Shown here: positions 8,285 to 47,923 of the stretch, piece by piece
Numbering within the stretch: position 1 is the stretch's first letter
Layout of the letters: each line of letters opens with the position of its first letter
Assembly (NCBI GenBank): GCA_024399115.1
Contig: JAKSHZ010000006.1
Coordinates: 8,314-72,313 of the forward strand
DNA length: 64,000 bases
Reading direction: 5' to 3'
DNA from: Bacilli bacterium
GTDB lineage: Bacteria; Bacillota_I; Bacilli_A; RFN20; CAG-826
Notes under the pieces: model-generated
Told to the model about the DNA's origin: nothing
The model's database searches: none
What the model saw: the letters and a program-made list of their open reading frames with translations, nothing else
Position numbers and translations under genes: made by a program

Positions 8285-9049
8285 ATGTACCCAGATTTAT
8301 TTGGAATTCCAGATTTTTCTTACACATTAATGATTGTTATCGGTGTTATTGCGTGTTTAATTTGCTTGGTTGTCTTCCTTAAAAAGAGAGGTTACAAGAA
8401 AAACACAATCATCGATATTCTTGCATGTACTTTATTTACAATCGCAATCGGTGTAGTGGGTGCAATTATATTTCAAAACGTTTACGATTTAATCTCTGAT
8501 CCAGCAAACTATCATTTCTCATTCAAAATGACTTTCTATGGTGGATTAATTTTTGGAATCGTTGCTTTTATCCTCTTATTTAACTTCTATGTTAAGAAAC
8601 ATAACAACATTAGAATTAGAGAAATTGCTTATATTGCGCCACTTTGTATCACATCAGCTCATGCTTTTGGTAGAATTGGTTGTCTTTTAGCTGGATGTTG
8701 CTATGGTGCTGAATCTCATTCTTGGGTTGCTATCGATTTCCCTGGATTAGGTGAAAGATTACCTACTCAATTATTTGAAGCAATTTTCTTATTTGTTCTT
8801 TCAGGCGTATTAATCTATTTGATTTTTAAGACTAAATTCAAATGGACATTACATTTATATTTAGCAAGTTACTCAATTTTTAGATTCATTATCGAGTTCT
8901 TTAGAGATGACGCAGCACGTGGTGGAACGTTATTTGGATTATACCCAAGCCAAGTAATTTGTATCGTTGTTTGGATTGTATTTGTTCCATCTTTATGGGC
9001 GTTAAAGAAATTTGTATTCTACCCAATTCCTGAAGATGAGCAAAAATAA
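8285..9049 (+). CDS. lgt: Prolipoprotein diacylglyceryl transferase
   Basis: Polytopic membrane protein with Lgt-type blocks: YGGLIFG, GRIGCLLAGCCYG, PTQLFEA, FRFIIEFFRDD. Strong SD GGAAGGAG. Confidence 0.8.
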   Translation: MYPDLFGIPDFSYTLMIVIGVIACLICLVVFLKKRGYKKNTIIDILACTLFTIAIGVVGAIIFQNVYDLISDPANYHFSFKMTFYGGLIFGIVAFILLFNFYVKKHNNIRIREIAYIAPLCITSAHAFGRIGCLLAGCCYGAESHSWVAIDFPGLGERLPTQLFEAIFLFVLSGVLIYLIFKTKFKWTLHLYLASYSIFRFIIEFFRDDAARGGTLFGLYPSQVICIVVWIVFVPSLWALKKFVFYPIPEDEQK

Positions 9050-11959: not shown

Positions 11960-12913
11960 ATGCCTGCATTTTTTACTCATTACACATTTGTAGAGAAAAA
12001 CACTGGTCATGAAGATCCTTATGCATCTATTCGTGCATTAGGAGGCCAAGGCCCTGATGTTTTCTTCTTCTATGGATATTCTTTAAGAAAACGTGAGAAT
12101 AAGTCCCAAAAACGTTATTTTGGTACACACATTCATCACATCAATATTTCTGATGCCTATTCATTCCTTTTAGAGTACGCAAATAAGCAAGAAGATAAAG
12201 AAATGTTGAACTCTTATTTAAAAGGATTATTCATGCATTATGTAATGGATAGAAACTGTCACCCATATATTTTCTATAGAACTGGATTCGCTACTGATCC
12301 AGAAAATAAAGAAGAAGCAAAGAAATACATGAATATTCATGTTCGCTTTGAAAGTATTCTTGATACAGTCTACGCAAAGAGCAATAAAACATTCATTAAG
12401 CCTAAAAAATGCGTTAAATCTAACGAAAATTGGGTTAAATCTGTTTCAAAAATGTTCTTTGAGTTAGCAAAGCATCTCAACTATGAATACGTAGATGAAT
12501 TAACTTTCTATAACGCTTATAAGGACATGTTATTCGTTGAATCAGTTTTATATTCTCCTTTAGGAGTTAAGAAATTCTTTGCGAATTTATTTATTAAAAA
12601 CAATTTCATCAACTGCATGATGTCACCTGCTAGAAGTAAACCATACGAAAAATATGACGTTACGAATTTATCAAATTCTGAATGGAAAGACTGTATTACA
12701 GGTGAAATTAGAAAAGAATCTTTCTTAGAATTAGTTGAAAACGCTAAGAAAGAACTTCCAAAAGTTGATGAATTAATCAAAAAAGCTTCATTAAATGAAG
12801 ATATTAAAGAAGATATGGTGAATTTTATTCATAATATCGATCATGATGGATTTATGGTCAATGCGACTAAATCTCATTATCAAAATTTCTTAGATACATC
12901 GGACACAAAGTAA
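11960..12913 (+). CDS. Hypothetical metal-dependent hydrolase, possibly zinc-dependent phospholipase C-like family
   Basis: His-rich blocks (MPAFFTHYTF, GGQGPDVFFF, GTHIHHIN, HYVMDRNCHPYIF) resemble the uncharacterised Zn_dep_PLPC-like bacterial proteins. Starts 3 nt after the MFS stop. Confidence 0.4.
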   Translation: MPAFFTHYTFVEKNTGHEDPYASIRALGGQGPDVFFFYGYSLRKRENKSQKRYFGTHIHHINISDAYSFLLEYANKQEDKEMLNSYLKGLFMHYVMDRNCHPYIFYRTGFATDPENKEEAKKYMNIHVRFESILDTVYAKSNKTFIKPKKCVKSNENWVKSVSKMFFELAKHLNYEYVDELTFYNAYKDMLFVESVLYSPLGVKKFFANLFIKNNFINCMMSPARSKPYEKYDVTNLSNSEWKDCITGEIRKESFLELVENAKKELPKVDELIKKASLNEDIKEDMVNFIHNIDHDGFMVNATKSHYQNFLDTSDTK

Positions 12914-19399: not shown

Positions 19400-19604
19400 A
19401 TATCGATTCCGATGAAAAAGAGGAGTAATTAAGAATATTTCTCATAGAGAGCTGGGGATGGTGGAAGCCTGGTAGAGATACTTAATGAAGGTCGCTTTGG
19501 AGGAATAGTTACCTAAACTAAATTAGGAAGATTAAGTGCGGAGAAATCCGAACTAAGGTGGTACCACGTTAATAGCGTCCTTAGAAATAAGGGCGTTTTT
19601 ATTT
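19400..19604 (+). promoter_or_regulatory. T-box riboswitch leader (valine-specific) with terminator/antiterminator
   Basis: Extended -10 TGTATAAT at 19390-19397. Stem-I elements (AGAGAG, GGTGGAA). Candidate specifier GUC followed by a purine at 19491-19494. T-box sequence AACTAAGGTGGTACCACG (19551-19568). Terminator CGTCCTTA-gaaa-TAAGGGCG plus T5 (19576-19600), directly upstream of valS. Confidence 0.85.
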
Positions 19605-23181: not shown

Positions 23182-23284
23182 ACTAACGTTGTTGCCTCAC
23201 TAGCTACAACCGCATAGAAAAGGTTTTCAAAGATTTATCTACCTTCATAGCGAGTACTTAGTGAAGAAAAGAAGGAGGCTAATT

Positions 23285-28060: not shown

Positions 28061-30706
28061 ATGCGTAGAATTTGGGCTCACATTATTATAGCTATTACTA
28101 CTTTTGTAATGATGGTAGTTACTTTTACTGCTGTCACAAACAGATTAAACGTTGGCATGGATTATGCAAATGGTAAAACACTTACATTCCACGTCACAGA
28201 AAAGACAGATAATGGTGAAAATAATCCAAAAGATTTTGTAGACGGATCACTTCAAGAAGTCGCAGACATCATGGAAGAACGTCTCAATACAGCTGAAATC
28301 GAAGGCTTTGACGTAGCTCCATTCGGAAAAGATTTAATTAAAGTTACTCTTTATCAAGACTCAGTCGACTATTCCCAAATTAAAGAATATTTAACATTCA
28401 ATGGTTCTTTATATCTTTATTCTTATGACTCAGAAAAAGTTGACCACTTCGTTAGTGCTGAAGCTTTCGTAAATGGTGATAAACCAGCTTACTTAACTGA
28501 CACAAACGATGTTTACCCAACAATTAACATTCCTGTTGATATCACAAACGAAGATTATAAAGCGGTCGTTTCTGGTGCTGTCAACTCTGCTGATATCACA
28601 ATCAAAGAAGAATCAGAAGAAGGTGCTGGCGATGCTGAAACAGCAAAATTCATGTACTTAGTTTATAACTTTGTTCCAGGTCGTGATTCATTCGAAGATG
28701 ATAACTTCCAAAACTTAGTTTTATTAAGATTCCAAGTTAAAAACGACGGTACAGATGATACAAAAACATTCGACTATTTCGTCGATGGTGATGTTTACGC
28801 TTTAAGTACTGTTTTAAACATTGGTGACGAAGAAGGTAAAGTTGATACAGCAAACATTGCTGTTGCTTGGAAAAACGGTACATTCTATAGAAACTTATTA
28901 AATGCTGGTGCATATGAATTTGACGTTACATGTATCAACGAAGAATCAGCTCCTGCAAAAATTGAAAGCTTATACAATTTAGGCAAAAACCAAACAGTTT
29001 TCACAAGCTCAACATTCATTGCATTTGCTTGTGCAATCATCTTAACTTCATTAATCTTAATCGTTTTCTATAAATTCGGTGCTTTAAGTATCGCAACAAC
29101 TACAACAGTTTCAGTCTTCTTAGGAATTTTATTCCTCATGATTTTCGGTACTGAATTTAACTTATTCGCTGTTGTTGGTTTAATCCTTGTTGGATTCGCT
29201 TCATTAGCAAGTGGTTGCTTATACTTAAATAAATTTAAAGATGAAGCATATCGTGGACGTTCTGTTAAGAAAGCTAACACAGAAGCAAGCAAGAAAAGCA
29301 CATTAATCGTTACTGATATTCATGTTGCTTTAGTTATCCTTGGTGCTTTCAATTACTTAATTGGCGGTGCTTCTATGAAGAGCTTCGCTTTAGTAACTGT
29401 TTTAGGCGGAATCGCTGGTTTAATCTTAAACTTAATCGTATTCAAAGCATTTATGTGGTTAGACACTAACGCTGCATATACACAAGGCAAATACAATATG
29501 TTCGGCGTTGATCAAAGCAAAGTTCCAAGCTTAATTAACGAAGAAAAACAAACATATTTCGGTGCTTATGCTGATAAAGATTTCACTAAGAAATCAAAAT
29601 TAGCTTCAATCATCTCATTTGCCTCATTTGGTGTTGCTTTAGTTGCAATGTTAACATTCGGTATTGTCAAAGGTTCTGTTTATAACAATCCTTCAAAACA
29701 ATACGATAACGAAATCTTCTTCAAGATTGATAACGAAAATGGAATCGACTTATCAGTCGTTTCAAATAATATTTCTTCTGTCTTAGACGAAGTTAAACTC
29801 GATCAAGCTGGTACAAAATCATTATCAAGTGTCTTTGATGCTCCAGTCTTAGTTGATTTCGACGTCTTAGAATATGATAATTCAGAAGAAAACCCATACG
29901 TTAATCACTGCTATGTTGGTTACTTAGTAAAAGCGAACGCTGCAGTTCCTGAAAAAGTTTATTATAACGGTACAGAATACAATATCGCTGATTTAGGTAC
30001 AGATGATGTTGTTACTAACGATATCGTTAATAAAGTTTCTTCATACTGCTTAAATGTTGAATATGCTTCAGGCTCATCAACATCAAAATCAAATTTAAGT
30101 GTTGGTAGAGTATTCATTGCTACAGGTGCTGCTTTATTAACTACAGCATTATACTTATTAGCAAGATTCAAACTCTCTAGAGGTTTAGCTGCTTGTGCTA
30201 CAACATTAATCGGCGCTACAGTCGTTGCTGGCTTATTATCATTACTCTATTTCATCCCTGCAACAAATACTGCTGTAATTGGCGCTGTCGTTGCTGAATT
30301 CTTATGTTTCGTATTCGCAATCCTCTTTATGGATAAAGAAAGAGAATTAGTCTTAGATGATAAGAAACATGATAATTCTTACGAAAATAGAAACGAAATC
30401 ATGAAGAAAGCTATTTCATATGGCTTTGGTGATATCTTAAATATCGCAATCGTTGGTTTATACCTCGGAATTAACTTCTTTGGATTTGGTCCTAGTGGTA
30501 TGAGCTGGATCTCAGTACAAATCATTATTGCTGTTGCAGCTGCATTTGCATTAGCAATGTTCGTCTTAGGACCAGTCAGCCAATTCTTATTCAAGAAATT
30601 CGCTAATGTCGGTAAGGCTAAGCCAAGAAAAGCTAAAGCAAAATCAAGTGCTAAAGCAAAGAGTGCTGAACCAGAAGAAGCAATCTTCATTGGTATTAAC
30701 GACTAA
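28061..30706 (+). CDS. secDF: Probable fused protein-export membrane protein SecDF (divergent)
   Basis: Topology is TM, about 300-aa external domain, 5 TM, TM, about 150-aa external domain, 5 TM. Sits at the same position as B. subtilis secDF (after ruvAB, before recJ). The sequence is very divergent, so the call rests on architecture and synteny. Confidence 0.6.
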   Translation: MRRIWAHIIIAITTFVMMVVTFTAVTNRLNVGMDYANGKTLTFHVTEKTDNGENNPKDFVDGSLQEVADIMEERLNTAEIEGFDVAPFGKDLIKVTLYQDSVDYSQIKEYLTFNGSLYLYSYDSEKVDHFVSAEAFVNGDKPAYLTDTNDVYPTINIPVDITNEDYKAVVSGAVNSADITIKEESEEGAGDAETAKFMYLVYNFVPGRDSFEDDNFQNLVLLRFQVKNDGTDDTKTFDYFVDGDVYALSTVLNIGDEEGKVDTANIAVAWKNGTFYRNLLNAGAYEFDVTCINEESAPAKIESLYNLGKNQTVFTSSTFIAFACAIILTSLILIVFYKFGALSIATTTTVSVFLGILFLMIFGTEFNLFAVVGLILVGFASLASGCLYLNKFKDEAYRGRSVKKANTEASKKSTLIVTDIHVALVILGAFNYLIGGASMKSFALVTVLGGIAGLILNLIVFKAFMWLDTNAAYTQGKYNMFGVDQSKVPSLINEEKQTYFGAYADKDFTKKSKLASIISFASFGVALVAMLTFGIVKGSVYNNPSKQYDNEIFFKIDNENGIDLSVVSNNISSVLDEVKLDQAGTKSLSSVFDAPVLVDFDVLEYDNSEENPYVNHCYVGYLVKANAAVPEKVYYNGTEYNIADLGTDDVVTNDIVNKVSSYCLNVEYASGSSTSKSNLSVGRVFIATGAALLTTALYLLARFKLSRGLAACATTLIGATVVAGLLSLLYFIPATNTAVIGAVVAEFLCFVFAILFMDKERELVLDDKKHDNSYENRNEIMKKAISYGFGDILNIAIVGLYLGINFFGFGPSGMSWISVQIIIAVAAAFALAMFVLGPVSQFLFKKFANVGKAKPRKAKAKSSAKAKSAEPEEAIFIGIND

Positions 30707-43357: not shown

Positions 43358-43774
43358 ATGGCAATTACACGTAATCAATCACACTTTATTATCATGACAG
43401 TCATCTATGATGAATTGGCAGATTTCGTAATGGGTGGCGGAAACGCAAGTAGAAATGCCAACGAATTAATCGAAGAAATTTGTGAAACTCCTTTCGATCA
43501 AGTCGACCCTTATATCAAAAGAAGTGTTGCTTTAACAATGCAACATTACGGAGACATTGTTGCTGCTTTCCAACCTTTATTAGTTAACTGGAAGTGGGAA
43601 CGTCTCCCTTTATTAACACAAGCTATTCTTTTAATGAGCTATGCTGACTTCTATTACGTTGAAAAAGTTGATAAGAAAATTGTTATTAATACAGCAGTTG
43701 ATCTTGCAAAAAAGTACATCGAAGAGAAGCAAGCAAAGTTCATTAACGCAATCCTTGATGGAGTATTAAAATAA
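43358..43774 (+). CDS. nusB: Transcription antitermination factor NusB
   Basis: About 138 aa, all-helical. C-terminal FINAILDGVLK block. Position upstream of xseA as in Bacillus. Confidence 0.85.
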   Translation: MAITRNQSHFIIMTVIYDELADFVMGGGNASRNANELIEEICETPFDQVDPYIKRSVALTMQHYGDIVAAFQPLLVNWKWERLPLLTQAILLMSYADFYYVEKVDKKIVINTAVDLAKKYIEEKQAKFINAILDGVLK

Positions 43775-44904
43775 TGTCTCTAACAAGAGTTGTTTACAGT
43801 GTTTCTGAAGTTAACAGATATATCAAAAACGTTGTAAATAATGACCAAAACCTTAGATTTTTATCGGTCAAAGGTGAAATTAGCAATTTAAAATATGGTG
43901 CTAATGGTCATGTTTATTTTTCTTTAAAAGACAAAGAGAGTATCATCTCAGTTTGTTTATTTTCTACTTATGCTGCTAAGCTAAAATTCACTCCTCAAAA
44001 CGGAGATGAAATTATTGTCCTAGGAAGTATTGATGTCTATCCGGCAAGAGGTAGCTATCAACTTATCGCAGTCAATGTAGAACAATCCGGAAAAGGTGAT
44101 ATTTTATATGAACTCGAACAACTTAAAAAGAAACTTGCTTTAGAAGGATTGTTCGATGCTTCTAGAAAAAAGCCAATCAATTTATACCCTAATGCAATTG
44201 GGGTTATCACAGCAGCAAATAGCGCTGCAATCAAGGATATTATTTTTAATATCAAAAGAAGATATCCAATCGCGGATATTTATTTCTTTCCTAGCCAAGT
44301 TCAAGGTGAAAATGCTCCTAAAGAATTACTTCAAGCATTTAACCTATCTCAGAAGTATCCATTAGACACAATTATCATTGGTCGTGGTGGTGGTGCTAGT
44401 GAAGATTTAGGCGCATTTAATGACGAAACTTTAGTAAGAGCAATTGCTGAAAGTAAAATCCCAGTTATCGCTGCTATTGGTCACGAAATTGACTCTACAT
44501 TAGTTGATTACGTCGCTGATAAACGAGCAAGTACTCCTACTGGAGCCGCTGAACTTGCAACTATCGATAGAAGAGAATTAGAACTTCATTTCCAAGATGC
44601 TCTAGACGAAATGAAACAATGTCTTAGAGATACTGTTGAAGTTCAAAAAGAAGAAATTGAAAACGCTAAGGAAGATTTAGATCGAATGATTCAAGATAAA
44701 ATTGAACTTCTAAAGCAAAAAGTTGAACTTAGAAATGAACAATTATCTTCTTTATCACCAACAGGAATTCTCAAAAGAGGCTATTCAATCACATTAGATG
44801 AATCTGGAAAGCCAATTACAAATGCTAAAACACAAAAAATAGGAAATAAAATTAGGACTATTTACTATGATGGTGAAACTATTTCTAAAGTAGAAAAAAT
44901 ATGA
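43774..44904 (+). CDS. xseA: Exodeoxyribonuclease VII large subunit
   Basis: N-terminal OB fold (YSVSEVNRYIKN..VKGEISN..GHVYFSLKD), catalytic core (GRGGGASEDL, IGHEIDSTL), C-terminal coiled coil. Ends with TGA. Confidence 0.9.
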   Translation: MSLTRVVYSVSEVNRYIKNVVNNDQNLRFLSVKGEISNLKYGANGHVYFSLKDKESIISVCLFSTYAAKLKFTPQNGDEIIVLGSIDVYPARGSYQLIAVNVEQSGKGDILYELEQLKKKLALEGLFDASRKKPINLYPNAIGVITAANSAAIKDIIFNIKRRYPIADIYFFPSQVQGENAPKELLQAFNLSQKYPLDTIIIGRGGGASEDLGAFNDETLVRAIAESKIPVIAAIGHEIDSTLVDYVADKRASTPTGAAELATIDRRELELHFQDALDEMKQCLRDTVEVQKEEIENAKEDLDRMIQDKIELLKQKVELRNEQLSSLSPTGILKRGYSITLDESGKPITNAKTQKIGNKIRTIYYDGETISKVEKI

Positions 44905-44917
44905 TAAAAAAAGCATT

Positions 44918-46939
44918 ATGAAAAAAATATTGAATAAAATATTAATTAATTCCTCACTGTTGCTCTTTTTTTCGAATACTATTATTTTTGATTCTTTAGG
45001 TTTTAGAAAGACCGAAGAACACGGAATTCAAGAACAAGCTCTATTTTCTGGTTTTTATGTTCAAGGAAATGATCATAACACTGACACTCCACAATTATCT
45101 CCACCCGGAAATAGCATTTTACGTTTCAATATAGAAAATCGAAATTACACATTTCTAAGTGCTAATTTACAAAATAATAATCTTTATGAACAAAAATTAT
45201 ATTCTGAAGATTTCTTAAATTATACTTATGAGGAACTCGATTATAGCATATATACAGATTCATATAATAATTTCAAACCATCTGTCGAAGTAGGGCCAAA
45301 AGAAAGTCAAATATGCAGCACTTGTAAAATAAGGGCATATTACTATAATGTTCAATCTTTTTTTGGGCGAGTTGCCGTTATGTATGATTTCACTGGTTTT
45401 CTAGTGGGAGAAAGTTTACTATTAACTGCTGCTCACGGATTATATTTGGATGTAACATCTGGAATATTCGATGATGGAATACAAAATTATTATTTCCCTG
45501 GTAAGATTGAAATTTATGGTGCGATTGGTCTTACTGATGTTTGGGGTTCCGAATATCCATATTATGCTCTTGCAAAAGAAATATTTTTAGATTCTGAATT
45601 TATAACAACCAGAGCTATTAATGCAGATTGGGCCCTTTTGCGATTAGACAAACCATTAGGCAAAGAACTTTCGTATAGGGTTTTAATACCTGAATCTGAG
45701 AATTTCGACTCATTAAAAATTATTGGTTATCCTTCTTGGAATCAAAGTTTTGAAAAAGTTGATGCTTCTAATAGCGTTATATTATCCAATTACGGACAAT
45801 TCCGTTATGACTCAAATACTCAAGAAGGTATGAGTGGTTCTCCAATATGCTCTCTTTATGAAGACGAATATATCGATAGTTATGTAGATAGAAGCAGATC
45901 TATCTCATCTTTGTTATCAAGATGTGCAATTGGGATGCACATATCTTATGATTACGAAAATCATTATGGTTTTGGTCTACGCTTTTCTTATACATTGACT
46001 GAATTGGTTGAACTCTTGAACAAAAGATACCGACCTGAATCTATAAATCTTTTAAATGAAATCACTCATGCTTCATCAGCACATAATAATTTTTTAAGCG
46101 AAGACTATTTTTACAATATTGATTTTTCAAACACAACAATTGGTTCTGATAGCATTTTTTTTGGCGACTCTGCTTTAATTACTTTGTCTTTTAATTTTCC
46201 CATTAAAAGTGTGGTTTTAAATTTTGACAATACATCTCCAATTTCAAACGAAAAAAAGATTTATTATGAATTAAATAATAATCAAATTGAGTCAAGTATT
46301 GGAAACACGTATTCGCATATTTTATTTCAAGAACCTATCTTTTCTTTTACCATTCATTCGAGTTTTTCTTCTCAACTTAATCTTTTTTCAGTGATTCCGA
46401 ATTGGAACTATATCCCTTATGAAAGCTATTTTCCAAACTATAATAATTCAGAAATATCAATAGGAAGCAACAACAATTGTGTCTCATATGCGCTTAATAA
46501 TCTTTTAGGAAATATACAATACAACGAAAATAATAGTTTGGGCTTAACAGCTAATATTTTTAGACCATACGGAATTACTCCATATTCTGTTTTTAATGCC
46601 TTTGAAACCAAATTAGATAGTCTAAATCGTAGTATAAGAATTATTCCTATTAAAAAATTTGATAAATGTACTCACGGCGGATACAAAATTTGTATTTTAA
46701 CAGATAATTTTAACTACTATCATTTTCTAAGACAAAATTCAAATGGCGATTGGTCTCATTTTATTATAAATACTGGTGTAAGTAATTTAGATAGTCTGGG
46801 AAATATTATTGTCGATCCAGAAAATAGTATAATATGTAATTTTTCTAACGAACGAATATATATTGAAAGCCTTGGTCGTAATTATTATGATGTTTCGTTT
46901 AATCTTACAACATTAGTTGGATATTATGAGGTATACTAA
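44918..46939 (+). CDS. Secreted or membrane-anchored trypsin-fold (S1B/V8-like) serine protease with about 300-aa unknown C-terminal region
   Basis: N-terminal signal/anchor (KILINSSLLLFFSNTIIF). Catalytic triad contexts LLLTAAHG (His), ADWALLRLDKPLG (Asp), TQEGMSGSPI (Ser). Asn/Ser/Tyr/Phe-rich composition with frequent ATA, AGG and CGA codons. Confidence 0.7.
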   Translation: MKKILNKILINSSLLLFFSNTIIFDSLGFRKTEEHGIQEQALFSGFYVQGNDHNTDTPQLSPPGNSILRFNIENRNYTFLSANLQNNNLYEQKLYSEDFLNYTYEELDYSIYTDSYNNFKPSVEVGPKESQICSTCKIRAYYYNVQSFFGRVAVMYDFTGFLVGESLLLTAAHGLYLDVTSGIFDDGIQNYYFPGKIEIYGAIGLTDVWGSEYPYYALAKEIFLDSEFITTRAINADWALLRLDKPLGKELSYRVLIPESENFDSLKIIGYPSWNQSFEKVDASNSVILSNYGQFRYDSNTQEGMSGSPICSLYEDEYIDSYVDRSRSISSLLSRCAIGMHISYDYENHYGFGLRFSYTLTELVELLNKRYRPESINLLNEITHASSAHNNFLSEDYFYNIDFSNTTIGSDSIFFGDSALITLSFNFPIKSVVLNFDNTSPISNEKKIYYELNNNQIESSIGNTYSHILFQEPIFSFTIHSSFSSQLNLFSVIPNWNYIPYESYFPNYNNSEISIGSNNNCVSYALNNLLGNIQYNENNSLGLTANIFRPYGITPYSVFNAFETKLDSLNRSIRIIPIKKFDKCTHGGYKICILTDNFNYYHFLRQNSNGDWSHFIINTGVSNLDSLGNIIVDPENSIICNFSNERIYIESLGRNYYDVSFNLTTLVGYYEVY

Positions 46940-46943
46940 AAAT

Positions 46944-47906
46944 ATGGATAAAGCAATTGTTTTTTTAATACTCATTTCTACAACTCTTTGTTCATGCTCT
47001 GGAAACACGAACTCCAACAATCACAATATCGAATGTGATGAAGATTCTCAAATCAATGAAACACTAGATACTAATAAAGAGGACAACAAAAACGAAAACA
47101 ATTCATCAATTGAGTTACATAACTATATTCAAGGATATCCTTATAAAGTCGGGGATCAATTTTATTTAGATAAGGATTATTCAGGTACATCTGCAAATGA
47201 TTTTATAGAAATGGCCATGAGATACAATTACTCTCCGTCCATTAATTCTTTCTTTTCCTTAAATAATTATGATTCGAACTCTTTTTGCTGCTCTGGTAGA
47301 TTTTATTCTTTTTCGTATAACAATTACGATATTTTTGCAGAAAGTAATAACAATTTAATTAATACATATAAAAAAAGCATTAAAAAGAAATTTACAGAAA
47401 AAGAAGCAATTGAACTTGGTTTTTTTTCTAAAAAAAGAACTATCACTAATCCAATTTATTACGATTTTAAAAAAGTTGCTGAATCTACTGAAATTTCTTG
47501 GATTTCAAATTATAAAATGGAACTAAATTTGGAAAATATAATGCGATTTGGAGCGTGGGATTCGCTTATGTGTTTCCTGGATAGAGGTCCTGAAAGATCT
47601 TATCGAAATGGTTTAAATTTCTGTGTATGGCCAGCTATTTCTATCTATTCTGATGACTTATCTGAAGTTATTGGAGTGAGTTTATATACATATGAATTTA
47701 ATAATTTTTTGACATTTTTGAAACAAGACGGATATAGTAATACATTTGATTTTGAATATTTTTCATCACAAATTTCCTATTGTCAGGAAAACAATACCAA
47801 CTTTGGAAGAGCTGCCTTCTATTTAACTCCAGAAATTTTTGAAGGACCGGGCGATAAGATTTTTTATGAACTAATGTATCCTAATTTAAGAGATTTAAAG
47901 TTATAG
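46944..47906 (+). CDS. Putative lipoprotein, unknown function
   Basis: MDKAIVFLILISTTLCSCSG.. is a signal peptide with a lipobox-like L-C-S-C. A GAGG SD lies 11 nt upstream of the ATG at 46944; alternative starts are the ATG at 46926 and the TTG at 46917. An Asn/Asp-rich linker precedes a globular region. I recognise no family. Confidence 0.6.
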   Translation: MDKAIVFLILISTTLCSCSGNTNSNNHNIECDEDSQINETLDTNKEDNKNENNSSIELHNYIQGYPYKVGDQFYLDKDYSGTSANDFIEMAMRYNYSPSINSFFSLNNYDSNSFCCSGRFYSFSYNNYDIFAESNNNLINTYKKSIKKKFTEKEAIELGFFSKKRTITNPIYYDFKKVAESTEISWISNYKMELNLENIMRFGAWDSLMCFLDRGPERSYRNGLNFCVWPAISIYSDDLSEVIGVSLYTYEFNNFLTFLKQDGYSNTFDFEYFSSQISYCQENNTNFGRAAFYLTPEIFEGPGDKIFYELMYPNLRDLKL

Positions 47907-47923
47907 AGTAAAGAGGTATTATA

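Follow-up and report, generated by a model that had tools for sequence, protein, structure and literature searches.

The exonuclease VII locus

The window, as we call the whole 64,000-nucleotide stretch of Bacilli DNA that was analysed, carries the genes for both subunits of exonuclease VII. Between them, at 44905-47923, lies a two-gene accessory cassette encoding a protease and a partner lipoprotein. The locus reads as follows, in window positions.

43358-43774: nusB, directly upstream of xseA (ORF call)
43774-44904, plus strand: xseA, exonuclease VII large subunit, the left flank (TIGR00237, E=4.9e-122; PF02601/PF13742)
44918-46939, plus strand: protease gene, 673 aa, an ORF that begins 13 nt past the xseA stop
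46928-46932, plus strand: GAGGT ribosome-binding site of the partner gene, within the 3' end of the protease gene (sequence inspection)
46944-47906, plus strand: partner lipoprotein gene, 320 aa, with an ATG start and a lipobox; member of a small family
47912-47916, plus strand: AGAGG ribosome-binding site of xseB (sequence inspection)
47924-48112, plus strand: xseB, exonuclease VII small subunit, the right flank (TIGR01280, E=4.2e-18)
48112-49962: dxs, downstream of xseB

The first-pass annotation of this sequence had proposed two co-oriented genes between xseA and xseB, and the ORFs are indeed found at the positions it gave. The arrangement was found again at 100% identity in an independent assembly (L092). 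No mobile-element genes, flanking repeats or terminators were found at the cassette borders.

Absence from relatives and recurrence elsewhere

We compared the locus with 29 related Bacilli loci that have nusB upstream of xseA. In 26 of these, xseB follows directly on xseA, and the surrounding ±6 kb contain neither the protease nor the partner gene; the remaining three (L009, L023 and L080) were unscorable, no xseB being detected in the stretch examined. In L008 and L010, xseB begins 1-4 nt past the xseA stop. The cassette is placed precisely into this normally 1-4 nt junction, in one lineage of uncultured gut-type Bacilli.

The first-pass annotation had also asked whether the pair occurs elsewhere as a cassette, and it does, in nine distinct versions (the window, L003, L007, L085, L087, L089, L094, L101 and L102). 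In each the partner gene is directly downstream of the protease gene, and in eight of the nine the two genes overlap by 4 or 8 nt. The cassette neighbourhoods are unrelated to one another (rplQ-gpsA, fusA, NifU and mini-RNase III). Both families are similarly rare, with about 15 protease and about 12 partner members among billions of proteins, and their clade structures are parallel. Among well-aligned pairs, protease and partner identities are 42/35, 67/67, 61/58, 58/51 and 33/25%; over a set that includes poorly aligned pairs, the two identities correlate with r=0.55, a value inflated by common phylogeny. Judged from these sequences, the partner gene appears to be almost always translationally coupled to the protease gene and to diverge in step with it.

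The arrangement varies in several loci. L094 is a tandem array, while L087, a single contig, carries a second partner paralog that is 64% identical. In L001 the slot downstream of the protease is occupied by two unrelated lipoproteins. The metagenome assembly GCA_024500515.1 contains three diverged proteases, and three further runs with consecutive accession numbers contain one diverged cassette each.

A recently exchanged tract and a natural protease deletion

One relative, L100, whose XseA is 93% identical to that of the window, bears on both the movement of the cassette and the role of the partner. Two features are defined by this comparison.

44780-48050, no strand assigned: low-divergence tract common with L100 (sliding identity profile; boundaries approximate)
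44956-46957, no strand assigned: segment absent in L100, a 2,002-nt in-frame deletion (blastn, blastp and junction sequences)

The cassette tract has ∼97% nucleotide identity to L100 and is embedded in core DNA that is ∼84% identical. Its edges are sharp in the sliding identity profile: the tract itself is 94-100% identical, while flanking core genes are 71-88% identical, and the last ∼120 nt of xseA fall within the high-identity part. Synonymous divergence (dS) follows the same pattern, at 0.08 for the partner gene, 0.66 for xseA, 0.88 for dxs and 1.40 for dinB. At xseB, within which the exchanged tract stops, the value is accordingly intermediate (0.16). From these sequence comparisons we infer recent recombination or transfer between lineages that are ∼15% diverged in core genes.

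The deletion in L100 joins protease codons 1-13 to partner codons 6-320. The hybrid retains a signal peptide and a lipobox. The enzyme is lost, and the lipoprotein is intact and 97% identical to that of the window. The partner dN/dS against L100 is 0.18, a value that spans both branches rather than the post-deletion branch alone. It is important to note that the orphan partner and the recombination evidence both come from one ENA contig (L100) at 2.5x coverage. The deletion may be too young for decay of the partner to show.

The first-pass suggestion of a horizontally acquired module in a core operon is thus borne out by the absence of the cassette from the 26 scorable relatives, its recurrence elsewhere and its recent exchange. 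We consider it very probable that this is a mobile cassette with two functionally linked genes.

Base composition

Composition contributes less to this picture. The G+C content is 0.293 in the protease gene and 0.285 in the partner gene, against 0.339±0.025 in other genes (z = -1.8 and -2.2 respectively). GC3 of the cassette is close to the host's and hardly differs from that of other genes; the dip is located at codon position 1, because both proteins are rich in Asn, Ser, Tyr and Phe (z = +3.6 for the protease and +4.0 for the partner). The compositional contrast that had been announced for an AT-rich insert is therefore present but modest, weaker than that label implied and mostly a matter of amino-acid content. 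Similarly, the reported use of ATA (Ile) and AGG and CGA (Arg) codons is high in the protease gene (z = +3.5 for ATA, +3.0 for AGG+CGA), but several other window genes show similar usage. The example given, aaa-ata-agg, is present at 45326-45334, one base before the 45327-45335 originally quoted. Taken alone, the compositional argument for acquisition is weak.

The protease carries a predicted second hydrolase module

The 673-aa protein is divided, by sequence and by an AlphaFold2 model (pLDDT 76.5, pTM 0.77), into the following parts.

44918-45010, plus strand: Sec-type signal/anchor, aa 1 to ∼31 (MKK, then a hydrophobic stretch; helix 2-19 in the model)
45308-46033, plus strand: S1B (glutamyl-endopeptidase-like) domain, aa ∼131-372, with catalytic His173, Asp237 and Ser306
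46034-46429, plus strand: middle β-rich domain, aa ∼373-504, all-β, pLDDT 82-93, with no family assignment
46430-46936, plus strand: C-terminal α+β domain, aa 505-673, with invariant Cys521, His602, His614 and Asp625

The protease has no lipobox and no C-terminal sorting motif, and a lipobox regular expression was negative in all protease homologs. An alignment of the family (15 members) contains 59 invariant columns; conservation is low in the middle domain, the most variable part. The S1-type triad claimed in the first-pass annotation holds: the motifs LLLTAAHG, DWALLRLD and GMSGSP are present and carry His173, Asp237 and Ser306, which are invariant, in the order His-Asp-Ser, in 15/15 members. 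A Foldseek search with the protease-domain model found 1p3c (E=7e-9, TMt 0.72), together with V8, Esp, SplA/B and the trypsin-like domain of the Gemella IgA1 protease, and a profile of the family searched against the PDB found 1p3c (E=4.6e-10), SplA (6.7e-7) and ETA (1.5e-3). The Pfam Trypsin_2 score of the window protein is 22.5 bits, under the 27.6-bit cut-off, while most homologs have a precomputed PF13365 match. Sequence and model together identify what appears to be an intact S1B-like serine protease domain (clan PA, family S1).

Characterised S1B enzymes (the Bacillus intermedius glutamyl endopeptidase 1p3c, S. aureus V8/SspA, S. epidermidis Esp, SplA-F and the exfoliative toxins) gave the top matches by structure and by profile, and share with the window protease a chymotrypsin-like double β-barrel fold, the His-Asp-Ser order, a GxSGSP-type motif and Sec secretion. 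They differ from it in that identity is only 12-16%, and in that the window protease has a conserved N-terminal region, the β-rich domain, the Cys/His C-terminal domain and a paired lipoprotein gene.

In the model of the C-terminal domain, Cys521 opens a helix (521-529), with His602 in strand 601-606 and His614 in the adjacent strand 612-616. The 12-residue His-His spacing recalls the Cys-His-His triad of E. coli Spr/MepS. Foldseek matches to the PDB are all sub-threshold, in a list enriched in clan CA: the best is AvrPphB (E=0.058), further ones are the PCAT1 C39 domain, Josephin and tegument DUBs and MepS, and all have TM ≤0.29 and probability ≤0.57. Three uncharacterised giant-virus proteins are matched significantly (E=1.9e-6 to 3e-4). 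A profile of the domain found nothing among PDB sequences except a chance match at E=1.1, and nothing in Pfam except DUF7689 in 1/11 members (E=0.028). By topology, we consider this a putative papain/NlpC-P60-like Cys-His-His hydrolase module.

The partner is a predicted lipoprotein of a small family

The partner most likely starts at the ATG at 46944, giving 320 aa; the mechanically called start, a TTG at 46917, would give 329 aa. The protein consists of a lipobox ending at Cys18 (LILISTTLCS|C, PROSITE PS51257-type), a ∼50-aa Asn/Ser/Asp/Glu-rich tether and a ∼250-aa globular part. Within its family (P0016-P0025 plus the locus-encoded members) the lipobox is found in 13/14 members tested and in the L100 fusion, with a nearly invariant S-C pair. 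The exception, P0021, has no pattern match, yet its hydrophobic N-terminus ends in ...CVSC. The lipoprotein pathway gene lgt is encoded in the same window (8285-9049). These observations agree with the lipoprotein-type signal peptide of the first-pass annotation.

That annotation had also found no recognisable family for the partner, and we likewise obtained no Pfam, NCBIfam, PHROG, PADLOC or PDB family match. Profile searches of the PDB and Pfam connected the partner with none of the known inhibitor or immunity families, and a Pfam search of the partner family gave a Rotamase or SurA-type (parvulin/PrsA) match in 0/13 members. The PDB includes structures of MIB-MIP and Protein M, and the partner profile found nothing MIB- or Protein-M-like there or in Pfam.

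Proposed function of the pair

Three roles for the partner had been suggested, namely substrate binder, inhibitor and immunity protein, and among these the orphan partner of L100 favours the latter two. In the reading that we prefer, the enzyme would be exported via Sec and freed outside the cell, where it would hydrolyse extracellular peptide bonds, either in envelope components, those of competitors or its own, or in proteins of host or dietary origin. The lipoprotein would be held by its flexible linker on the outer face of the producer's membrane, and there would bind the enzyme and neutralise it at the cell surface as its cognate inhibitor or immunity protein. Cells without the enzyme gene that retain the lipoprotein would still be protected from the enzyme of their neighbours. 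Immunity-like features of the pair are the adjacency, co-orientation and co-divergence as a unit (nine cassettes), and, each on a single contig, the partner without a protease in L100 and the extra partner in L087. We count with them the tandem array of L094, the unrelated lipoproteins that fill the slot in L001, and the diverged proteases and cassettes of GCA_024500515.1 and the three consecutive runs. Counting against immunity, general secreted proteases usually need no such protein, and the partner resembles no known family of this kind. We would put the whole reading, in which a hydrolase is secreted and its own lipoprotein inhibits it or confers immunity, both encoded on an exchanged cassette, at about even chances, and the inhibitor or immunity role of the partner somewhat below that.

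Three known systems resemble this arrangement in part. In the staphylococcal ssp operon, sspA encodes the V8 serine protease, sspB the cysteine protease staphopain and sspC the inhibitor staphostatin. An S1B protease, a papain-type Cys/His hydrolase and a downstream partner thus also share one transcription unit there, whereas both catalytic modules would here be fused in one polypeptide, and the partner would be a 320-aa extracellular lipoprotein rather than a cytoplasmic β-barrel of ∼110 aa. Neither staphopain nor staphostatin showed sequence similarity, or significant similarity in structure, to the proteins here. The S. aureus pair TslA-TilA, a T7SS-secreted lipase and a DUF576 lipoprotein, provides a precedent for an extracellular immunity lipoprotein (bioRxiv 10.1101/2023.07.29.551094). 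It shares with the present pair an extracytoplasmic enzyme beside a lipoprotein gene, with neutralisation predicted here, and lipoprotein copies that vary in number, some without the toxin; it differs in that our enzyme is a peptidase with a Sec signal, and neither side is homologous. Finally, ABP systems comprise the S8 subtilase AbpP, the BetaH-nuclease toxin AbpT and the cytoplasmic immunity protein AbpI (PMC12582261). In them, too, a Sec-exported serine protease is linked genetically with an effector module and a gene for protection, all within a compact mobile cluster, but the protease here is S1B and the partner is predicted to be extracellular. We rejected an assignment as an ABP system: the protease is S1-type, the cassette lacks a third gene, and neither a nuclease nor a BetaH domain is present.

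A more specific form of the preferred reading we regard as possible but doubtful. In this form, the cassette would encode an undescribed, Sec-dependent and contact-independent antibacterial enzyme with two heads, neutralised by a new extracellular immunity lipoprotein family. One head would be an S1B-like endopeptidase, the other an NlpC/P60-like Cys-His-His hydrolase directed at the envelope or wall of neighbouring Bacilli. The pair would pass from one species to another through homologous recombination at the junction of a core operon, and strains without the weapon would keep the shield.

There are four alternative explanations. The first, which we think unlikely, is that the lipoprotein serves this one enzyme outside the cytoplasm in maturation, folding or docking (PrtM-like or lipase-foldase-like), and folds, activates or retains the protease at the cell surface instead of inhibiting it. 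Strict adjacency, translational coupling and co-divergence of the pair would all be expected to fit such a factor, and a tethered partner could retain an enzyme that has no wall or membrane anchor motif of its own. There is precedent in PrtM, a ∼300-aa lipoprotein specific to one adjacent, secreted serine protease, PrtP (PMC3307742). PrtP is an S8 enzyme and PrtM a parvulin/PrsA-type chaperone, whereas our partner has neither such a domain nor any Pfam match, and outlasts the loss of its protease. prtM is transcribed divergently from prtP. The client enzyme is lost in L100, so a single-client chaperone should be dispensable there, yet the exported lipoprotein is intact. Nor do an extra partner without an extra enzyme (L087), or unrelated lipoproteins in its place (L001), fit well.

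The second, which we consider improbable, is host-directed capture and cleavage, in which the lipoprotein would bind a host protein, for instance an immunoglobulin or a mucin, and hand it to the protease. The model is MIB-MIP, in which MIP is a DUF31 protease and lipoprotein and MIB a Protein-M-like immunoglobulin binder (PMC13459921). Both modules are surface-associated, two-gene and mobile by horizontal transfer, with a serine protease and tandem copies, and the hosts of our cassette are gut or rumen-type Bacilli. A lone binder could still be useful, which fits L100, and the Gemella IgA1 protease is among the structural neighbours. Against this, searches of the PDB and Pfam linked the partner to neither MIB nor Protein M, and nothing points to a host ligand. 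The loose analogy to MIB-MIP drawn in the first-pass annotation, which claimed no homology, finds no support as homology, and we rejected that assignment: there is no PF01732 (DUF31) match at E≤0.1, the protease has no lipid anchor, and the gene order is reversed, with the protease gene first.

Equally improbable in our view is the third, that a protease of ordinary function, in nutrition or in remodelling of the envelope, and a surface lipoprotein unrelated to it travel together without physical interaction. Secreted S1B proteases are often general proteases, and the L100 lipoprotein survives without one. However, the same order in nine independent cassettes, eight of them overlapping, the parallel clades and the great rarity of both families are hard to explain without functional coupling. 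The fourth, that no insertion took place and the gene order is either ancestral or a product of faulty assembly, agrees with the host-like GC3 and the featureless borders, but is already contradicted by the 26/26 scorable relatives that lack the cassette, the identical independent assembly, the low-divergence tract within diverged core DNA and the unrelated contexts elsewhere.

Implications

To our knowledge, almost nothing is known of competition and host interaction in these uncultured Bacilli. If the preferred reading of a secreted enzyme and its neutralising lipoprotein holds, uncultured Bacilli of the gut and rumen would have a new pair of enzyme and protector. Three features would be new: a secreted protein of unrecognised architecture that joins a serine and a cysteine hydrolase module, a family of lipoproteins without known relatives, and a C-terminal domain that also occurs in uncharacterised proteins of giant viruses. 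The deletion seen in L100 and the sharp edges of the low-divergence tract indicate that a small cassette without mobility genes can move between diverged genomes, with core genes as its recombination arms, which is useful for understanding the flow of accessory genes in metagenomes.

Two genes separate xseA from xseB

The first-pass annotation suggested that a secreted serine protease gene and a lipoprotein gene had been inserted between the two exonuclease VII subunit genes. Open reading frames and matches to TIGR00237 and TIGR01280 confirm that two extra genes split the pair, and on these profile scores xseA and xseB can be identified confidently. The gene order is:

43358-43774: nusB
43774-44904: xseA (TIGR00237, E=5e-122)
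44918-46939: protease gene, an ORF of 673 aa
46928-46932: GAGGT ribosome-binding site of the partner gene
46944 (ATG): start of the partner gene, 320 aa
47924-48112: xseB (TIGR01280, E=4e-18)
48112-49962: dxs, followed by dinB-like and xerD-like genes

The gaps are small (13 nt from xseA to the protease gene, 4 nt from protease to partner and 17 nt from partner to xseB). The position of the GAGGT site ahead of the ATG at 46944 sets the partner at 320 aa, and xseB has an AGAGG ribosome-binding site of its own. Mobile-element signatures were sought and rejected: neither direct nor inverted repeats of any note flank the insert, no terminator-like site was found at the cassette borders, and promoter-like sites occur in the region at chance frequency. 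We infer that the cassette is probably transcribed by read-through with the operon. The best promoter-like site of the region, at 47709-47738 (TTGACA, 18-nt spacer, TATAGT; 11/12 matches), falls within the partner gene, at its 3' end and ∼190 nt ahead of xseB. Such a site could have given back independent transcription of xseB-dxs after insertion, in a region where total site counts are at chance level.

In order to compare the arrangement with that of relatives, XseA was used to scan one genome per species, yielding 77 loci. The collection holds no close species-level representative of this organism, the best XseA being just 61% identical (from an uncultured Bacilli MAG), followed by those of horse-faeces Bacilli and Coprobacillus MAGs. 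In 29 of the 77 loci nusB lies upstream of xseA; three of these (L009, L023 and L080) are without xseB in the stretch examined and were left unscored. In the 26 that could be scored the two genes abut, with XseA and XseB matches 17-75 nt apart, and in the two closest of them the xseA stop is 1-4 nt from the xseB start. Neither cassette protein was found within ±6 kb in any of the 26. Absence from these relatives, together with recurrence of the cassette elsewhere (below), supports insertion as the main interpretation. L092, a contig assembled independently from a different sequencing run, carries the same arrangement at 100% identity over 10.3 kb; thus the insertion is not an assembly chimera. 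Since the order is the same in L092, xerD (51147-52049) belongs to the conserved neighbourhood as well.

The window is core chromosome, also encoding tig, lon, valS, obg, ruvAB, recJ, relA, hisS, aspS, tkt, efp and parC/parE-like genes. A T-box leader (108 bits; 19403-19585) precedes valS, and a ribosomal protein L21 leader (41 bits; 23198-23268) precedes an rplU-like ORF. The gene between ruvB and recJ (28061-30706) encodes a multi-pass membrane protein of 881 aa. Its sole Pfam match is marginal (SecD_SecF_C, E=2.8e-4), and it is probably a strongly diverged SecDF.

The compositional contrast described in the first-pass annotation, whose weakness was suspected there too, is real but weak. Against the other 44 window genes of more than 100 codons (mean G+C 0.339±0.025), the protease gene has a G+C of 0.293 (z = -1.8) and the partner gene 0.285 (z = -2.2). 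The dip falls at codon position 1 and mirrors a very high content of Asn, Ser, Tyr and Phe (z = +3.6 and +4.0); GC3 is little different, and neither it nor a codon index trained on the window makes the cassette genes outliers. Usage of ATA (Ile) and of AGG and CGA (Arg) is high in the protease gene, as it is in a few other window genes. Composition was therefore rejected as proof of foreign origin, a dip of ∼2 SD driven by amino-acid content being counted as weak evidence only. Asn/Ser/Tyr/Phe content is also unusually high in a 317-aa protein (11960-12913) with a zinc-dependent phospholipase C domain (PF00882, E=3e-9), which may be a membrane-active exoenzyme. A 314-aa ORF (53302-54246) with no Pfam match at E≤0.05 is, like the cassette proteins, rich in these residues (0.30).

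A relative has probably exchanged the cassette and lost the enzyme

L100, a contig of another sample, encodes an XseA 93% identical to that of the window. Its xseA-xseB interval holds one 328-aa gene, in which protease codons 1-13 are fused in frame to partner codons 6-320. The partner portion is 96.5-97% identical to the window partner, and the hybrid N-terminus meets the lipobox pattern. Exactly 44956-46957 (2,002 nt) is missing relative to the window, and no protease remnant is left. The evidence comes from one contig, covered at 2.5x, but the deletion breakpoints share at most 1 nt, which makes an artefact of the assembler unlikely. With so little microhomology at the junction, we claim no mechanism for the deletion.

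Divergence between the window and L100
Gene: dS; nucleotide identity
Partner: 0.08; 97.4%
xseB: 0.16; 94.6%
xseA: 0.66; 86.2%
dxs: 0.88; 83.4%
dinB: 1.40; 81.2%

In a sliding profile of identity, values of 94-100% mark out a tract from ∼44,780 to ∼48,050, in surroundings of 71-88%. The simplest reading of this uneven divergence has two steps: the cassette would have been exchanged recently between lineages whose core genes differ by ∼15%, the crossovers falling in the 3' ends of xseA and xseB, and the enzyme would afterwards have been lost in one lineage while the lipoprotein was kept. The partner dN/dS of 0.18 is consistent with constraint, though the value spans both branches and the deletion may be young.

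The pair recurs as a cassette in unrelated neighbourhoods

Relatives of either protein are rare, with only 14 for the protease in 5.8 billion protein clusters and about a dozen for the partner. Wherever the DNA suffices, the protease gene is followed immediately by the partner gene. There are nine such cassettes, those of the window, L003 (likewise L004-L006), L007, L085, L087, L089, L094, L101 and L102, and in eight of them the two genes overlap by 4 or 8 nt. The pair thus does occur elsewhere as a cassette, a point that the first-pass annotation had put forward for checking. The neighbourhoods have nothing in common: the cassette follows rplQ-gpsA or fusA, adjoins NifU and CysQ, or precedes mini-RNase III. 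The housekeeping proteins on its flanks are those of uncultured Bacilli or Erysipelotrichaceae MAGs. The G+C of the cassettes runs from 0.29 to 0.52, above that of the host contig in some cases and below it in others. Partner clades parallel protease clades, and from the identities of well-aligned pairs (protease/partner 42/35%, 67/67%, 61/58%, 58/51% and 33/25%) the partner is usually the faster to diverge. The two genes form a linked unit that co-diverges and is exchanged horizontally. A phage or plasmid vector was considered and rejected, no relative turning up in IMG/VR, PLSDB or PHROGs.

Several loci depart from the simple pair. In L087 (2586-6665), downstream of fusA, a single protease gene lies between two partner paralogs (326 and 323 aa; 64% identical). 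L094 (1-3107) carries the 3' part of a protease gene, a partner 46% identical to that of L003, and the start of a second, diverged protease (33% identity to window protein residues 7-159); head-to-tail arrays of cassettes are thus possible. In L001 (5297-11163) the protease homolog P0008 is followed, in the downstream slot, by two paralogous 189-aa lipoproteins, which hhalign aligns to the partner family over the signal peptide only and which are thus unrelated to it. The opposite strand upstream encodes a TIR-domain protein, for which PADLOC gives ThsB-like hits, and a protein of 332 aa that weakly matches a 4TM effector, and the region may be a defence or conflict island. L002 (1-9452) has an ORF pair (294 aa plus a 189-aa lipoprotein, the latter 100% identical between copies) twice on the contig, adjoining a truncated (483-aa) protease homolog. 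One metagenome assembly, GCA_024500515.1, contains three diverged proteases, and three further runs of consecutive accession, SRR17543907-09, contain diverged cassettes.

Domain architecture of the enzyme and its partner

The enzyme has a Sec-type signal without a lipobox, and no C-terminal anchoring motif was found in it. An AlphaFold2 model built on a 15-sequence alignment (pLDDT 76.5, pTM 0.77) has a chymotrypsin fold at residues ∼131-372, whose best structural matches are the Bacillus intermedius glutamyl endopeptidase (E=7e-9, TMt 0.72), V8, Esp and SplA/B. The family sequence profile agrees (1p3c, 4.6e-10; SplA, 6.7e-7; exfoliative toxin A, 1.5e-3), and His173, Asp237 and Ser306 are invariant in the 15 sequences, so that the serine triad is intact. 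The window protein scores under the Pfam Trypsin_2 cut-off and is therefore a divergent S1B-like protease; we regard this domain as a new member of a family already known.

A β-rich domain that varies across the family (residues ∼373-504) is followed by an α+β domain (residues 505-673; 46430-46936) in which Cys521, His602, Asn607, Trp612-Ser613-His614 and Asp625 are invariant. In the model a helix starts at Cys521, and His602 and His614 lie on adjacent strands, a predicted topology shared with papain-like and NlpC/P60 hydrolases. When the domain was modelled separately (pLDDT 77), no PDB neighbour reached significance, although clan-CA enzymes (AvrPphB, C39 domains, Josephin and tegument deubiquitinases, MepS) make up most of the top of the list, and its sequence profiles found no Pfam or PDB family. 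We therefore describe it only as a putative Cys-His-His hydrolase of a new family, not an established peptidase. It matches three uncharacterised giant-virus proteins of ∼180 aa structurally over their full length (F2Y2U4, Hokovirus A0A1V0SF80 and M1HB16; E=1.9e-6 to 3e-4, TM ∼0.5-0.58), and one family member has a weak match to Pfam DUF7689; the domain may represent a widespread unrecognised family.

The partner is lipid-anchored outside the membrane: a PROSITE-type lipobox is present in 13 of the 14 family members tested and in the L100 fusion, the remaining member, P0021, is a near-match, and Lgt is encoded in the window. The lipidated Cys is followed by ∼50 low-complexity residues and a globular part of ∼250 aa, in which a small number of positions are invariant, such as Tyr235, Asp237 and Asp238 in IYSDDLSEVIGV, together with Lys260 and Asp262. 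Nothing similar was found in Pfam, NCBIfam, PADLOC, PHROGs or the PDB; family assignment by sequence was abandoned, as profile searches of Pfam, NCBIfam and the PDB match the signal peptide only.

A secreted enzyme with a proposed protective lipoprotein

We propose that the enzyme would act extracellularly, and that the partner would bind it at the producer surface and neutralise it. Our reasons are that the partner is kept after loss of the enzyme, occurs in extra copies and tandem arrays, and can be replaced in its slot by other lipoproteins, and that GCA_024500515.1 contains three diverged proteases and SRR17543907-09 diverged cassettes. By analogy, these habits point towards effector-immunity pairs, and extracellular immunity lipoproteins are known, such as TilA for TslA (bioRxiv 10.1101/2023.07.29.551094). 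An immunity or inhibitor role is nonetheless a tentative assignment, whose chances we would put at a little under even. The substrate may be bacterial envelope, host protein or dietary protein.

The main rival sees in the partner a PrtM-type lipoprotein (PMC3307742) dedicated to maturation or docking; this would account for the coupling of the genes but leaves the orphan partner of L100 unexplained. An anti-phage defence system was rejected, the only PADLOC match being a generic trypsin-domain similarity to RT-Protease_XI, and the Sec signal counting against an intracellular effector. A capture-and-cleave role like that of MIB-MIP (PMC13459921), a system with which the first-pass annotation drew a loose analogy without claiming homology, is improbable, as none of the testable features of that system was found here, and ABP systems (PMC12582261) offer a conceptual parallel only.

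In the libraries and literature searched we found no description of the three-domain architecture, of the C-terminal domain or of the partner family. We would class the cassette as a secreted hydrolase paired with its cognate, putatively protective lipoprotein.
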